NCBI GenBank assembly: GCA_020639255.1
Contig: JACKGZ010000007.1
Coordinates: 125,573 to 189,572 of the forward strand
Length of the DNA: 64,000 nt
Reading direction: 5' to 3'
Origin: Phycisphaera sp.
Lineage (GTDB): Bacteria > Planctomycetota > Phycisphaerae > Phycisphaerales > UBA1924
Shown: positions 2,426 to 33,873 of the stretch, piece by piece
Layout: every line of letters starts with the position of its first letter
How positions within the stretch are numbered: the stretch's first letter is position 1
The notes under the pieces: model-generated
Databases searched by the model: none
What the model saw: the letters and a program-made list of their open reading frames with translations, nothing else
What the model was told of the DNA's origin: nothing
Made by a program: the position numbers and the translations under genes

Positions 2426-2520
2426 GCCGTGTTCGTATCGGTCTGTTTCGTCGTACGGGTCCAAACGGGGAACAGTGGGCCCTCGGATCGGGTTGTGAGG
2501 GCGTAGGATCGGGCTCAACC

Positions 2521-3882
2521 ATGCGACCACGATGTGTCATCACGGGAATCGGAGCCGTCTCGGCGGCGGGCATCGGGATCGAACAGACCTGGGACAGCCT
2601 CTGTTCGGGTCGATCCGGGATCGCGCCGATTTCGGCATTCGATGCGACGACGAGCCCGCACCCCTTCGGCGGCGAAGCCAAGAAAGAGGACCAGCTCGTC
2701 AGCGCCCGCGACTACGTCCCCAAGCACTACCGCAAGGCAACCAAAGTCATGGCGCGCGACACCGAGCTCGCGGTCGTGGCGGCCTCGCTCGCGGCGGCCG
2801 ACGCGGGGCTTGTGACGCGCGAGGCGGGTGAGGACGCAGCGCTGACGTACCCATCGAGCCGCGTCGGGTGCCACATCGGCGCGGGCTTCATCGCGGCCGA
2901 GACGGAAGAGCTGACCAGCGCACTCGTCACAGCCAAGGACGACAAGGGCGATTTCTCGCTCGAGAAGTGGGGCGAGGTCGGGATCGGGAATCTCCAGCCG
3001 TTGTGGCTCCTCAAGTACCTGCCCAACATGCTGGCGTGCCACGTCACCATCATCCATGGCTGCGAGGGCCCCTCGAACACGATCACATGCTCGGAGGCGA
3101 GCGGGCTGCTCTCGCTGGGCGAGTCGGTCCGGATCATCGAGCGTGGCGATGCGACCGCGTGTTTCTCGGGCGGCATCGAGAACAAGACCAATCCGATGGG
3201 CGTGACGCGCATGGGCATGCTCGGGCGCTTCGCGGAGCTCGACGGCGGCATCGATGAACCTTGGAGGCATGTCCGCCCGTACGACGACTCGGTGTGTGGC
3301 GGCGTGCCAGGCGAGGGCGGCGGCATCGTCGTACTCGAAGAGAAATCCGCCGCCGAAGCGCGCGGAGCAAGGGTGTACGCCGAGGTCGCGGGTATCGGCA
3401 GCGCCCAGTCGCAACCGGGGGCGCTGGGGATCTGCCATGAGGTGAGCACCTGTGGCGGACCGGGCGGCGACGCCGACGAAGGACTCGCCGACGCGATCGA
3501 GGCGGCGCTCCGTGACGCGAAAATTGGCCCCGACGACATCGATGCGATTGTGCCCGCGGCGATGTGCGTGAGCACGCTCGATCGCGCCGAATTGGGCGGC
3601 CTCGAACGAGTCTTCGGTGCTCGACTCCCAGAAATCCCTCTGGTGACACTCACGCCCTTTGTCGGACAGCTGTTTTCCGGTGCCGGGGCCTTTGCGATGG
3701 CGGTGGGGGCCAAGGCGGTATCCGAGCAGCAGCTGCCCGCACGGCTGCACGGCGGCTGGCCCGAAGCACGGGCTGGCGCGGGAGCCTCAGAGAGCGTTGA
3801 CGCGGAACTGATGAATGTGCTTGTATGCACGGGTTCGCTTTCGGGGCAGGCCGCGGCGGTGGTGCTCAGGCGAGCCGACTAG
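2521..3882 (+). CDS. Beta-ketoacyl synthase-like protein lacking both catalytic His residues (Cys retained)
   Basis: Start chosen at ATG 2521 (MRPRCVITGIGAVSAAGIG). Thiolase-fold KS similarity throughout. ITCSEAS aligns with the active-site Cys. The His positions read VPAAMCVS and FVGQL when aligned to the downstream paralogue. Confidence 0.8.
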   Translation: MRPRCVITGIGAVSAAGIGIEQTWDSLCSGRSGIAPISAFDATTSPHPFGGEAKKEDQLVSARDYVPKHYRKATKVMARDTELAVVAASLAAADAGLVTREAGEDAALTYPSSRVGCHIGAGFIAAETEELTSALVTAKDDKGDFSLEKWGEVGIGNLQPLWLLKYLPNMLACHVTIIHGCEGPSNTITCSEASGLLSLGESVRIIERGDATACFSGGIENKTNPMGVTRMGMLGRFAELDGGIDEPWRHVRPYDDSVCGGVPGEGGGIVVLEEKSAAEARGARVYAEVAGIGSAQSQPGALGICHEVSTCGGPGGDADEGLADAIEAALRDAKIGPDDIDAIVPAAMCVSTLDRAELGGLERVFGARLPEIPLVTLTPFVGQLFSGAGAFAMAVGAKAVSEQQLPARLHGGWPEARAGAGASESVDAELMNVLVCTGSLSGQAAAVVLRRAD

Positions 3883-29928: not shown

Positions 29929-30645
29929 TTATTCGCCCAGCATCTCGGCGACAATCGGGATGAGCTGCGCTGTGGGTGGGATCGTGCGCTCGGAATCGCC
30001 GAAGGCAACGAGTTCGTCGGCGGGCACCCATCGCGTCTCGGCGTATTCCCAGTTGCTGGTGCTGGCGATCAGTTCGTGCACGCGGCGTTGCAAGTCGAGT
30101 CGGACGACGATGTCGGTGCTCATGGCGATCGGATCGTCGATGAGGCCGAGGATGTCATGCGAGGTGAACACTCCGGTGATGCCGACCTCGTCGCGGCACT
30201 CGACCTGAAGCTGACGGATCACCGCGAACTCGTCGAGCGCCGTGACGTGCGCCGGAGGCGGGTCGATCCCCCCCGAGGGGCCGAGCTCCCAGAGCGAGCC
30301 GTAGATCCGCGTGTCGTCCGAGCGTTTGCCGAAGAAAACATGTGGCTTGCCTGCGGTATCTCGCGCGATCAAAATGCCCGTGACAGAGAGTTGCATGACG
30401 GGCGGCTGGATCAGTCCTTTGGATTCCGCCTGCACCACCAGGCGCTTGTAGGAATCGCGCCTGGCGCGGATCAGGCCTTTGTCCTCGCCGACGAAGGCAA
30501 GGATGGGCCCGTCGAAGAGACGAGGTTTCTCGGCGCAGATCTCGTCCCAGCGGTCATCAACCTCGATGGGCAGATCGATGAAAGCGCGCGGCGCCACATC
30601 GATGCGCACGCTGCTCATCGGCTTGAACATCCCCAGCGGCTTCAT
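29929..30645 (-). CDS. Nudix-like hydrolase (degenerate Nudix box)
   Basis: ATG 30645-30643 overlaps the ybaB stop (ATGA). GSLWELGPSGGIDPP...RQLQVECRDEVGI resembles a GX5EX7REUXEEXGU box with an insertion. Confidence 0.5.
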   Translation of the reverse strand: MKPLGMFKPMSSVRIDVAPRAFIDLPIEVDDRWDEICAEKPRLFDGPILAFVGEDKGLIRARRDSYKRLVVQAESKGLIQPPVMQLSVTGILIARDTAGKPHVFFGKRSDDTRIYGSLWELGPSGGIDPPPAHVTALDEFAVIRQLQVECRDEVGITGVFTSHDILGLIDDPIAMSTDIVVRLDLQRRVHELIASTSNWEYAETRWVPADELVAFGDSERTIPPTAQLIPIVAEMLGE

Positions 30646-31031
30646 CCCAGGAGCTTGCCGATCGGCCCGAGCCCGCCGCCACCGGCGGGGATCAGGTCTT
30701 CGAGGCCCAGGCGTTTGACCTCGGCTTCGACCAACTCGCGGATACGGTTCTGGCACTTCTCGAGCGCATCGTTGGTGGCCTCGGTGATCAGCCGCTGCGC
30801 TTGTACACGCGAGTCTTCGGACGCTCCGAGCCCGGCGCAGACCGCCGGGTCGAGCTCGACCTTCTCAACGCGCTGCTTGCCCGAGACGACGACCCGGCAC
30901 GCACCGCCGCCCGCGTTGCCCTCGATGCGCAGCTCGGCGACTCGTTTTGCGAGCTCCTCGGCCGCCGCCTTGATCTCGTCCTTGCGGCCCATCAGTGACG
31001 CGATCGCGCCCATGTTCTTCAGTCCGAACAT
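30642..31031 (-). CDS. ybaB: Nucleoid-associated protein YbaB/EbfC
   Basis: 129 aa. NMGAIASLMGRKDEIKAAAEELAKR...GNAGGGACRVVVSGKQRVEKVELDP...ITEATNDALEK. Classic position after dnaX. Confidence 0.9.
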   Translation of the reverse strand: MFGLKNMGAIASLMGRKDEIKAAAEELAKRVAELRIEGNAGGGACRVVVSGKQRVEKVELDPAVCAGLGASEDSRVQAQRLITEATNDALEKCQNRIRELVEAEVKRLGLEDLIPAGGGGLGPIGKLLG

Positions 31032-31522
31032 CAGCTGGTTTCCTCTCCGGTTGGTCTCGCCAGCGGCTTCACTTCCACGATCCTTCCCTTGAACACCTCG
31101 ATCGCGTGGCGGATGACCGGGTCGTCGATCTCGATCTCGCCCGAGGAATGCACGACGGGGTCATCGGTCCCGCTTCGTTCTGGCTTCACCGTCGCCTCGG
31201 CGAGTCGGCACTCGATGCGCGTGCTCGCCAGACTCGACATCAGCTGAGCGAGCTCGGGCAGCTTGTTCTCGGCTGTCCCCCGGATGCGCTCGTCGCAGGC
31301 GAGCGTAACGACTCCGGCTGTATACGATACGATCGACATATCCGCGAGCATCGCGCGCACCATCATGGGCGCGTTTGCCCGCAGCTTCTCCCATAGTTCG
31401 GCGCCGGTTGTACCCGGACCGGGAGTCGGCTTCGGAGTCGTCGGAGTTGCGTCGGTCGGCGTCGGGGTCGGTTCGGCTCTTTGACGGGCCGGCGGTGTCC
31501 CCGGCGCCGTCAGCCTTTTCCC
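31031..31522 (-). CDS. dnaX: dnaX tau-specific C-terminal segment, encoded in the -1 frame relative to the upstream dnaX ORF
   Basis: The -1 frame reads KRLTAPGTPPARQRAEPTPTPTDATPTTPKPTPGPG (Pro/Thr linker). It continues LWEKLRANAPMMVRAMLADMSIVSY...DDPVIRHAIEVFKGRIVEVK, the usual DnaX C-terminal module. Its stop shares one nt with the ybaB ATG. Confidence 0.65.
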   Translation of the reverse strand, partial: GKRLTAPGTPPARQRAEPTPTPTDATPTTPKPTPGPGTTGAELWEKLRANAPMMVRAMLADMSIVSYTAGVVTLACDERIRGTAENKLPELAQLMSSLASTRIECRLAEATVKPERSGTDDPVVHSSGEIEIDDPVIRHAIEVFKGRIVEVKPLARPTGEETS

Positions 31523-31536
31523 GCGCCGGCTCCCTC
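31482..31536 (-). promoter_or_regulatory. Candidate programmed -1 ribosomal frameshift cassette (SD-like GAGGGAG, slippery G GGA AAA G, downstream hairpin)
   Basis: In mRNA sense: GAGGGAG 31536-31530, 7-nt spacer, heptamer GGGAAAA 31522-31516, 0-frame stop TGA 31512-31510. The stem spans 31511-31501 and 31492-31483 (10 bp, one bulged C, 8-nt loop). Confidence 0.55.
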
Positions 31537-32634
31537 GAGCTGACGCACCAGTGTCGTCACATCCGCCAGCTTCTCGGTCATCGCCAGGCGCACGACGAGC
31601 GCATCCAGCAACGCCCGCGGGTTCGGGCTCGAACGTGTCGCGCGCTGGACGCTCTCGCACAGCGCGATCATGTGGACGAGCCCGGCAGCGTCGAATCGCT
31701 GGGCGCGTTCGATCTCTTCCTTGCGGGTGTCACCCGTGAGCTCGACGAGCGAGGTCTCCGGGCCGCAGGCGCACAGGACCATCAGGTCGCGCAGGCGTTC
31801 GATGAGCGTTTCGAGGAGCTGATCGGGCCCGGTGCCCGTTGCCAGCAGCTCGGCTGCCGAGTCGAGGGCGGGCTTGGGCTCGCCGTCGGCGAATGCGTTG
31901 ATCAGGCGTCCGACGAGCTCGCGCGGCGCTAGGCCCATGAGTCCCTCGAGCAGTTCCACGGTGAGCGACTTCTCGCCCGAGGCCATGAGGCGGTCCATGA
32001 TCGAGAGCGCATCGCGCATCGAACCGTTGCCCAGGCGTGCGACCATCGAGAGCAGCTCGGGCTCGGCCTTGAGCTTCTCGTTCTTGACGACGTACGCCAG
32101 GCGGTCGGCGATAACGGACATCGGGATCGCACGGAAGTCAAAGCGTTGGCAGCGGCTCTGGATGGTGGGGGGAACCTTCTGCGCCTCGGTGGTGCAGAGG
32201 ATGAACTTGACGTGCTCGGGCGGCTCCTCCATGGTCTTGAGCAGCGCGTTGAAGGCTGCGGTCGAGAGCATGTGGACCTCGTCGATGATGTAGATCTTGT
32301 ATGGGCCGCGCATCGGGCGGTAGACGCTGCCGGCGATGAGTTCGCGGGCGTCGTCGACGGAGTTGTTGGATGCGCCGTCGATCTCGATGACGTCGGTGTC
32401 CTGCCCGGTCATGATGGCCTGATCGACCTCGGCTGAGCCACTGGAGTTCAGCGCTTTGGCGAAGACGCGGGCCATGGTGGTCTTGCCGACGCCCCGTGTG
32501 CCTGTGAAGAGGTAGGCGTGTGCGACACGGTCGGCCTCGATGGCGGCCTTGAGCGTCCTGGCGACGGGCTCCTGGCCGACGATGTCGTCGAAGCCGGTCG
32601 AGCGGTACCTGCGGGCGAGTGCGGTGTATGACAT
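31510..32634 (-). CDS. dnaX: DNA polymerase III subunit gamma/tau, 0-frame product (gamma-like, 374 aa)
   Basis: ATG 32634-32632. MSYTALARRYRSTGFDDIVGQEPVARTLKAAIEADRVAHAYLFTGTRGVGKTTMARVFAKALN, IIDEVHMLS, SRCQRFDF. Confidence 0.9.
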   Translation of the reverse strand: MSYTALARRYRSTGFDDIVGQEPVARTLKAAIEADRVAHAYLFTGTRGVGKTTMARVFAKALNSSGSAEVDQAIMTGQDTDVIEIDGASNNSVDDARELIAGSVYRPMRGPYKIYIIDEVHMLSTAAFNALLKTMEEPPEHVKFILCTTEAQKVPPTIQSRCQRFDFRAIPMSVIADRLAYVVKNEKLKAEPELLSMVARLGNGSMRDALSIMDRLMASGEKSLTVELLEGLMGLAPRELVGRLINAFADGEPKPALDSAAELLATGTGPDQLLETLIERLRDLMVLCACGPETSLVELTGDTRKEEIERAQRFDAAGLVHMIALCESVQRATRSSPNPRALLDALVVRLAMTEKLADVTTLVRQLEGAGAGKG

Positions 32635-32831
32635 GCCCCGATTGTAGTGCCCCGGTTCCCCCGGCTCGGTGGTCCGGTTCGGGGACCGGATCTCGGGAAT
32701 CAGCCCGGATTCACGGCCCACCCTCGTTGGCAGTGAGACGGCTTCGGTTGGTCGGCTGCTCATTTCGGCGCGAGCCGATTCGGCGGTGTCTCCCACACCG
32801 GGTGAGAGCCTTAGAACCCGGGGAGAACGCG

Positions 32832-33296
32832 ATGAAGCTTTCCATGATCCTGCTCACTTGCCCGTTTCTCTTGGGGTGCGCGACACGCACGCCTGTCGGA
32901 TCCGAATATGTTGGTACGTGGCAGTACGACAGGGTGTCGCTGCGTGAGCGGGCGCTCGCCAGCGCAATCGACTCGGTCAGCGGGGGCGAGCCGGAATCGC
33001 TCAGCGCCGAGGAATTCGAGGAGGTGCGGGCGTGGGTGTACGAGAACCACGCCGGCTGGGACAAGTCGATCGAGATCAAGCCCGACGGTACCTATGTGTG
33101 GACCTCGTGCGTCGGCGAGTCCACGCCCGAGATCATGCGCGGCACGTGGCGCAGCGAGCGCGGCGATGTCACTCTGTACACCGATGACGGGAGCAAGATC
33201 GCAATAGCCGTTCTTGCGGACGGAATGCTTCGGTTGACACCGACCGACGCCGGCGAGATCGGCGTGTACATGGCGATGAATCCCGTCGACGAGTAG
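32832..33296 (+). CDS. Lipoprotein (lipobox LLGC), lipocalin-like small beta protein
   Basis: ATG 32832. MKLSMILLTCPFLLGCATR, then YVGTWQYD...GTWRSERGDVTLY...GMLRLTP. Confidence 0.7.
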   Translation: MKLSMILLTCPFLLGCATRTPVGSEYVGTWQYDRVSLRERALASAIDSVSGGEPESLSAEEFEEVRAWVYENHAGWDKSIEIKPDGTYVWTSCVGESTPEIMRGTWRSERGDVTLYTDDGSKIAIAVLADGMLRLTPTDAGEIGVYMAMNPVDE

Positions 33297-33372
33297 CTCT
33301 TCTTGATTCGCCGTGTATTCACGATCCGTGCGATCGTGTATGATGACGCTTCACAGAAATGGAGCATCACAA

Positions 33373-33873
33373 ATGAAACATCTGATCGTATATCCGGCGG
33401 CTGTGTCCCTTGTTCTTGGTCTCGCGGCCTGCGGGGGCGGAGACGCGGATTCGGAAGCAGGCTCGACGAAAGCCGTAGCGAAAGTCTCGGTGTCTGATTT
33501 CGTCGGAGTGTGGCACTTCGACAAGGAGGCGATGCGCGAGCCGGCCGTCAATTCAATGCTGGCCGAGCTGCCAGCCGGTGCGACCGATGCGCAGAAGGAA
33601 CAGATGCGCACGATGGCCGACAGCATGCTCTCGAGCATGGTCATGGATCTCACGATCAACGAGGACAAGACCTACAGCGTGCTCATGCGTGTGCCAGGCA
33701 GGTCCGACGAGATATCGAAGGGCTCATGGACGCTTGCCGACGGCGTGATCTCGATGGTGGAGGACGGCGAAGATGCCTCCAAAGTCGCGATGGGCCACCT
33801 CGACAACGGTAAGTTGCTTGTGGATCCGCCTGCGGGGGAAAGCGAACTCGGGCAGATCGTCATGACCCGGTAA
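33373..33873 (+). CDS. Lipoprotein (lipobox LAAC), distant paralogue of 32832-33296
   Basis: ATG 33373. MKHLIVYPAAVSLVLGLAACGG, then FVGVWHFD...GSWTLADGVISMV...GKLLVDP. Confidence 0.7.
   Translation: MKHLIVYPAAVSLVLGLAACGGGDADSEAGSTKAVAKVSVSDFVGVWHFDKEAMREPAVNSMLAELPAGATDAQKEQMRTMADSMLSSMVMDLTINEDKTYSVLMRVPGRSDEISKGSWTLADGVISMVEDGEDASKVAMGHLDNGKLLVDPPAGESELGQIVMTR

Follow-up and report, generated by a model that had tools for sequence, protein, structure and literature searches.

Phycisphaerales dnaX genes are laid out in two reading frames, consistent with synthesis of the tau subunit by -1 ribosomal frameshifting at a conserved G_GGA_AAA heptamer

In a stretch of 64,000 nucleotides (nt) from Phycisphaera sp. 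(contig JACKGZ010000007.1, positions 125,573 to 189,572), hereafter termed the window, we encountered a dnaX gene whose conserved parts are distributed over two reading frames. All features of this locus lie on the minus strand. The frame-0 open reading frame (ORF; 31510..32634) extends from an ATG at 32634-32632 to a TGA at 31512-31510 and encodes clamp-loader domains I-III in 374 amino acids (aa), a gamma-like product with the C-terminal end ...QLEGAGAGKG. It is recognised as a clamp-loader subunit by TIGR02397 (378 bits, cut-off 250) and PRK05563 (406 bits, cut-off 400), and PF13177, PF22608 and PF12169 each match within the AAA+ domains I-II and domain III, the DNA_pol3_gamma3 match covering residues 227-366. 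The -1 frame is free of stop codons from well 5' of the end of this ORF down to a TGA at 31033-31031, and encodes a Pro/Thr-rich linker (RLTAPGTPPAR...TTGA; 31400..31516) followed by a conserved domain that we assign below to the C-terminal end of tau (ELWEKLR...DDPVIRHAIEVFKGRIVEVKPL; 31031..31399). Base 31031 is common to the -1-frame TGA and the ATG of ybaB/ebfC (30642..31031; PF02575), giving an ATGA overlap between the two. The frames meet at a heptamer with the phase of a slippery site, G_GGA_AAA (31516..31522), which is separated from the downstream sequence by a 6-nt spacer, GGCUGA, containing the frame-0 stop (31510..31515). A Shine-Dalgarno (SD)-like sequence, GAGGGAG (31530..31536), precedes the heptamer, with GAGG ending 10 nt and GGGAG ending 7 nt before it. 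The predicted product of a -1 slip, in which A31516 would be read twice, is a protein of 373 + 161 = 534 aa. In the NCBI records the frame-0 product is 'DNA polymerase III subunit gamma/tau' (MCA9271541.1), and part of the -1 ORF appears as a hypothetical protein of 102 aa (MCA9271540.1). An earlier note, made from the letters of the window, had described this frame layout with its coordinates, the GAGGGAG, the phase of the heptamer and the ybaB overlap, and re-reading of the minus strand reproduced each of these base for base.

The arrangement is not peculiar to this genome. Our comparison set comprises 15 distinct lineages and more than 20 loci, which derive from separate samples and differ in assembler and sequencing technology; among them are Illumina and long-read data assembled with SPAdes, MEGAHIT or Logan and two closed long-read chromosomes (OZ245804.1 and OZ245827.1). 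All 15 lineages possess a dnaX ORF of 371-396 aa followed by a -1-frame ORF, with an in-phase heptamer shortly before the frame-0 stop. Identity to the window is about 70-95% for the N-terminal DnaX part and ranges from 83% down to ~24% for the C-terminal parts. A search with the 161-aa -1-frame peptide returned 12 proteins, all of which are separately called ORFs of 102-133 aa in Phycisphaerales metagenome-assembled genomes (MAGs), and none of which is fused to DnaX. The closest 120 DnaX homologues (69-95% identity) are all 343-411 aa long. An exhaustive HMMER profile search of 1.84 billion representative proteins revealed no homologue of the C-terminal domain fused in frame, and a second profile search for the fused domain was likewise empty, the domain being met solely in short orphan ORFs of 56-244 aa. 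The absence of a fused form, together with the uniformly short DnaX homologues, suggests that the two-frame gene is the rule in the order rather than an oddity of one genome, and from the sequences compared we consider the layout to be real and clade-wide in the Phycisphaerales. The check proposed in the earlier note, that heptamer and two-frame layout be sought in orthologues, thus found both retained in every distinct lineage; the opposite case, orthologues encoding tau in a single frame and lacking the heptamer, did not turn up among the lineages examined.

This conservation bears directly on the simplest competing explanation, that a single-frame dnaX has been split either by a 1-nt indel in the GGGAAAA run or by an inactivating mutation that left a pseudogenised tau region. 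Short homopolymer runs are typical indel sites, and the window DNA comes from a MAG. Errors of this kind do exist in these data: the locus L017 (CAXBOF010000014.1, about 2500-3027), which is near-identical to L007, L021 and L022, carries an extra frame break inside the tau C-terminal domain (...SSLAGGSSAGWPRLRSS...) that is probably an assembly indel, although it does not lie at the heptamer. At the site itself, base count and frame relation are identical in all of the independent loci, the two closed chromosomes included. The agreement of independent assemblies from different technologies excludes a homopolymer indel artefact, and with it the concern over the GGGAAAA run raised in the earlier note. 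Decay is opposed by the intact downstream ORF, which shows 58-76% identity among close lineages with 61 invariant positions; moreover, tau is essential in the bacteria studied for it. We therefore regard artefact or decay as refuted by the comparative data for practical purposes, with a negligible residual probability.

The heptamer is also an uncommon sequence in its context. GGGAAAA occurs only twice in 128 kb (both strands of the window), and in the long ORFs of the window GGA accounts for 6.4% of Gly codons and AAA for 20% of Lys codons. Despite the rarity of these codons, every relative with a GGGAAAA-type site that we examined has the GGA-AAA dicodon unchanged and in phase, which indicates that the heptamer is under selection. 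G_GGA_AAA is found in ten distinct close lineages and in L019 and L020, and A_AAA_AAA occupies the same place in L018, L026 and L027. The frame-0 stop follows 0-1 codons past the heptamer in 14 of the 15 lineages and six codons past it in L019. In L007 and L012 the two frames share just 25 nt (22 nt when the frame-0 stop is excluded), because the -1 frame has a TGA six codons upstream, and G_GGA_AAA is the only X_XXY_YYZ heptamer within this 22-nt overlap. The heptamer site is not a chance feature. Synonymous codons near the site are more often restricted to a single codon (fraction 0.50 vs 0.25 overall), which is suggestive, but just eight codons are eligible, too few to count. The second GGGAAAA of the window (37074-37068, minus strand) was considered as a further candidate and set aside: translation in the X_XXY_YYZ phase yields merely a 60-aa ORF with a G+C content at third codon positions (GC3) of 0.48, and the match looks incidental. 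The window contains no tRNA genes. A more distant Phycisphaerales lineage, L020 (JAVJSB010000001.1, 3603-3831), retains TCG_GGA_AAA_GCC_TGA and a stem at +7, and encodes a -1 extension of only 73 aa in which the folded middle domain is missing and the terminal box HPLVIQAVAAFDAEIKRVYPKN is retained; ybaB is not located downstream in this case.

Beyond the heptamer, the -1 frame has the properties of coding sequence. The linker varies from 41 to 66 aa across lineages and its reading frame is never broken. L002 and L003 are near-identical strains, yet one 12-nt repeat unit (SPAQ) of the Pro-rich linker (locus coordinates about 2860-2900) is present in one of them and missing from the other, an indication that the linker evolves by in-frame expansion and contraction of repeats. 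GC3 in the -1 extension is 0.73-0.92, compared with 0.88 in dnaX itself. These features, taken with the conservation of the domain that follows, lead us to read the -1 frame as coding from the heptamer onward.

A coding -1 frame could nevertheless be expressed without a change of frame, if the gene were truly split into a gamma-like DnaX and a separate small tau C-terminal protein, produced from its own start or by termination-reinitiation and acting in trans with the clamp loader or polymerase. Gene callers and NCBI do call a separate ORF of 102-133 aa in every genome, ATG ATG GTG is present in the -1 frame of the window at 31366, and there is no fused protein on record. However, the called start (MMVRA... 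in the window) lies inside the conserved domain, downstream of the ELWEKLR helix, and is not itself conserved, MM being replaced by LV in L006, L012, L016 and L025. From the heptamer up to the conserved Trp in ELWEKLR, ATG, GTG and TTG are absent from the -1 frame in 8 of the 11 GGGAAAA lineages, among them the window, whose linker contains none of the three, so that independent initiation of the conserved domain is unlikely. A split gene would also leave unexplained the invariant heptamer of rare codons, its phase, the variable linker that stays open and in frame, and the stem at +7. In addition, tau is defined in the Pol III holoenzyme by its physical connection of clamp loader to polymerase, and this connection would be lost if the tau domain were separate from the ATPase. 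We judge expression as two separate proteins to be improbable.

The assignment of the -1 ORF to tau was approached through its wider family. A HMMER search with a profile of the clade against the representative proteins named above yielded 44 relatives, all genuine ones being orphan ORFs of 88-231 aa, and the profile reaches the distant members P0133, P0143, P0154, P0158 and P0173 with E-values from 5e-21 to 6e-4. These distant members match solely DnaX models, and do so at the C-terminal ends of the models, for example at positions 383-575 of the 578 positions of PRK14965 (E = 1.7e-10). PRK14965 is matched by 11 of 43 members, and all six of the families matched are DnaX gamma/tau families. 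An AlphaFold2 model of the C-terminal ORF has a mean predicted local distance difference test (pLDDT) score of 63, with a core of about 80. Foldseek relates this model weakly to the C-terminal domain of Escherichia coli tau (5fku_E, 5fkv_E and 2aya; E = 0.016-0.035, probability 0.90-0.99); the best non-ribosomal matches other than tau, also weak, are domain I of DnaA and DciA, both of which have a similar fold. The terminal box, (D/H)PLV+.A.ELF.G+IV.V.P, is retained even in L020. Together these matches support the view that the -1 ORF probably represents the tau-specific region of DnaX.

Downstream of the heptamer, RNAalifold applied to ten lineages predicts a conserved stem of 11 base pairs (bp), in which a 5' arm at 31509-31499 (CGGCGCCGGGG; 31499..31509) pairs with a 3' arm at 31467-31457 (CCCCGACGCCG; 31457..31467). 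The stem is set off from the heptamer by the 6-nt spacer and encloses a small, weakly supported inner hairpin (31474..31491); 92.7% of cells are paired. The set was limited to ten sequences because scans of genome and metagenome collections with the C-terminal domain gave five loci each, mostly duplicates of known loci. One pair of the stem is variable, occurring as G·U, G-C, U-A and A-U and in addition as three mismatches across the lineages, with a C·A mismatch in the window. A GC-rich stem that begins 6-8 nt past the heptamer is predicted in all 15 lineages. In L018, L019, L020, L026 and L027 the linker sequences are unrelated to that of the window, yet each has a GC-rich stem at +6 or +7. 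When the first 5 nt were blocked from pairing, 13 of the 15 lineages formed an outer helix that begins at +6 to +8 and has 8 bp or more, as did 15% of 833 sites chosen at random from these loci, and the mean folding energy at the heptamer sites was -29.4 kcal/mol, compared with -20.1 ± 5.6 kcal/mol at random sites. This apparently convergent position of the stems is a stronger structural argument than covariation. The earlier note had pointed to a different element, a local hairpin at 31511-31483 (31483..31511), which is indeed the most stable predicted fold when this segment of the window is taken by itself (-27.2 kcal/mol) but would begin just 4 nt past the heptamer. It uses the same 5' arm as the conserved stem and excludes it. 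We did not retain this hairpin as a conserved element: only 81.5% of cells pair, and pairs 24/39 (mid-stem) and 18/44 are each unpaired in six of the ten lineages. Comparative folding prefers the longer-range stem. A search of Rfam gave a sole, sub-threshold match, to the viral RNA-dependent RNA polymerase (RdRp) frameshift-site family RF01074; it spans exactly the heptamer and the downstream structure (window 31472-31522, minus strand), but with 16 bits and E = 1.6 it stays below the gathering score of 40 and is not significant.

On the upstream side, GAGG ends 10 nt 5' of the heptamer in seven lineages, and AGGAG, GGGAG, GGAG or GGAGG ends 6-8 nt 5' of it in five other lineages as well as in the window and L012. 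L025 is one of these five, although the peptide encoded there differs.

Taken together, these observations suggest that tau is very probably produced in these organisms by obligatory programmed -1 ribosomal frameshifting, termination giving rise to the gamma-like protein. Ribosomes would translate domains I-III in frame 0 until GGA occupies the P site and AAA the A site of G_GGA_AAA, where the GC-rich stem, with its base 6 nt downstream, would hold the mRNA back; the SD-like GAGG ~10 nt upstream may contribute. A fraction of the ribosomes would then slip back by one base, tRNA-Gly moving from GGA to GGG and tRNA-Lys from AAA to AAA, and go on to read the Pro/Thr linker and the C-terminal domain, which would yield full-length tau (534 aa). 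The remaining ribosomes would end two codons further on at the UGA and release the 374-aa protein, which may function as gamma. The core of the earlier note, that tau lies in the -1 frame and is reached by a shift at G_GGA_AAA while the frame-0 stop gives a gamma-like protein, is thereby upheld, by conservation across the 15 lineages, by the narrow overlap in L007 and L012 and by the matches of the family to the C-terminal ends of full-length DnaX models.

Recoding could in principle also take place during transcription, as it does in Thermus thermophilus dnaX: RNA polymerase would add or drop one nucleotide in the A run, and translation of the edited mRNAs would give tau. The A7 present at the site in L018, L026 and L027 makes this plausible for those lineages only, and most of the 'reversed' dnaX genes described by Antonov et al. 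in 2013 have runs of A7-A10 for which realignment was predicted (PMC3711429). In contrast, the window and most of its relatives have just four A residues after three G residues, far fewer than the runs of about 8-9 A/T at which productive slippage has been described (PMC3711429; PMC5009743). Conservation moreover extends to the X_XXY_YYZ phase and to a stem placed at the spacing that suits ribosomes, neither of which a polymerase would need. The predominance of G_GGA_AAA in the Phycisphaerales favours ribosomal rather than transcriptional recoding, and slippage by the polymerase appears very improbable as a general source of tau in the order.

Several points weigh against the proposal that tau arises by ribosomal frameshifting. 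In E. coli, G_GGA_AAA reportedly shifts poorly when compared with X_XXA_AAG (PMC4066793), so that an essential protein would depend on a site of this kind. Direct scans of the -1 ORF of the window against Pfam, NCBIfam and PDB sequences gave no matches or chance-level matches only; the link to tau was consequently drawn via distant family members and is transitive, and the Foldseek E-values exceed 1e-3. Covariation in the stem is thin, since only one of the 11 pairs varies on both sides and 36 of 500 shuffles reach the observed score, and the stem of the window itself carries a C·A mismatch. The stem arms also encode the conserved LTA.G and PPSP, which confounds RNA constraint with peptide constraint. 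The cassette of the window folds no better than shuffled sequence (z = -0.95), which applies equally to the local hairpin of the earlier note; with the single-sequence fold unremarkable, the argument for structure rests on comparison. The SD-like motif is absent in L006, L011 and L018 and elsewhere overlaps the conserved QLEG codons, which makes the evidence for it merely suggestive.

The principle of recoding-dependent tau is itself established. Antonov et al. reported 17 such dnaX genes in 12 genera, including Chlorobium species, Chloroherpeton thalassium and Flavobacterium johnsoniae (PMC3711429), and the phenomenon was restated by Sharma et al. in 2014 (PMC4066793) and Atkins et al. in 2016 (PMC5009743). 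As in those 'reversed' genes, the Phycisphaerales loci comprise two adjacent ORFs in a -1 relation, with recoding required for tau, a gamma stop in frame 0 directly past the site, and a frameshift that is missing from the genome annotation. They differ in that 12 of the 17 genes have A7-A10 tracts, for which transcriptional realignment was proposed (PMC3711429), whereas the window has GGGAAAA with four A residues, A7 being confined to L018, L026 and L027. The study included two planctomycete genomes only (PMC3711429), and the Phycisphaerales clade of the Planctomycetota was not covered there. We found no description of recoded dnaX in Planctomycetes or Phycisphaerae in the literature. What is new here is the lineage, in which the arrangement is clade-wide, together with the G_GGA_AAA heptamer and the architecture of the stem, rather than the principle. 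The polarity that the earlier note described as the reverse of E. coli is indeed opposite to that of E. coli dnaX, but as a concept it was published in 2013 (PMC3711429).

Comparison with E. coli dnaX reveals a close parallel in design. Gene and position (the end of domain III) are the same, the three E. coli classes of element recur, and two products share domains I-III. The geometry is also alike: the SD-like sequence lies ~10 nt before the heptamer, and the 6-nt spacer includes a UGA; the E. coli cassette consists of AGGGAG, 10 nt, A_AAA_AAG, a 6-nt spacer with UGA and a stem, a sequence that we verified in 5424 E. coli genomes. In contrast, frame 0 specifies tau in E. coli and the shift gives gamma, whereas in the Phycisphaerales frame 0 specifies the short product and the shift would give tau. 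The E. coli site is A_AAA_AAG and its element is represented by RF00382; the Phycisphaerales have G_GGA_AAA and a longer-range stem that encloses an inner hairpin, and the window shows no match to RF00382, the Rfam DnaX ribosomal frameshifting element, even at E-values up to 10. Thermus thermophilus dnaX likewise encodes tau and gamma in one gene through recoding at the end of domain III, but there RNA polymerase slips on an A9 run and frame 0 encodes tau. A heptamer of the G_GGA_AAN class is in use in the G/GT tail-assembly chaperone gene of phage lambda. Bacterial ribosomes also use heptamers of this class in insertion sequence (IS) elements (PMC4066793). Like lambda G/GT and the IS3-family transposases (G_GGA_AAG, A_AAA_AAG and G_GGA_AAA), the Phycisphaerales genes combine a short frame-0 product with a late -1 shift that would give a longer fusion. 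Those are genes of mobile elements with a low ratio of fusion to short product, however, whereas in the Phycisphaerales the predicted fusion is an essential chromosomal replication protein.

The surroundings of the gene show further regularities. ATGA stop/start overlaps at 31031 and 30645-30642 chain the tau frame, ybaB and a 238-aa ORF (window 29929-31033, minus strand). This third gene encodes a conserved protein whose only resemblance, to NUDIX, is weak and falls short of the Pfam cut-off (E = 0.006); it is not recR, which takes this place in many bacteria. Divergent from dnaX and upstream of it lie two to three tandem paralogous ORFs of ~150-225 aa (window 32619-33873, plus strand; about 50-1650 in L001-L007). 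They are syntenic in close relatives and lipoprotein-like, having a Cys after a hydrophobic leader, and belong to no Pfam family on record.

In every public record that we saw, DnaX is shortened and the tau-specific half of its gene bears the name 'hypothetical protein', and as a result hundreds of Phycisphaerales genomes appear to lack tau. It is possible, although we advance this only tentatively and consider it less probable than not, that the whole order, and possibly more of the Phycisphaerae, is obligatorily dependent on frameshifting for an essential subunit of the replisome, with no in-frame tau gene in the clade and with the tau:gamma ratio set by the conserved two-tier stem and the SD-like motif acting on G_GGA_AAA. 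Dependence on this scale would imply lineage-specific properties of tRNA or ribosome, or an unusually strong stimulator, and might link the stoichiometry of the replisome to the translational state of the cell. The Phycisphaerales dnaX genes would in any event provide a clean, clade-wide case in which -1 ribosomal frameshifting appears to underlie an essential protein of the cell itself, as opposed to an accessory product or one from a mobile element. They also form a natural comparative series, with two types of heptamer, stems unrelated in sequence at a fixed spacing of 6-7 nt and a varying distance to the frame-0 stop, which could reveal what determines the tau:gamma ratio and how dnaX recoding comes to reverse its polarity in the course of evolution. 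The main use of the finding lies in the correction of annotation and in a comparative system for dnaX recoding.

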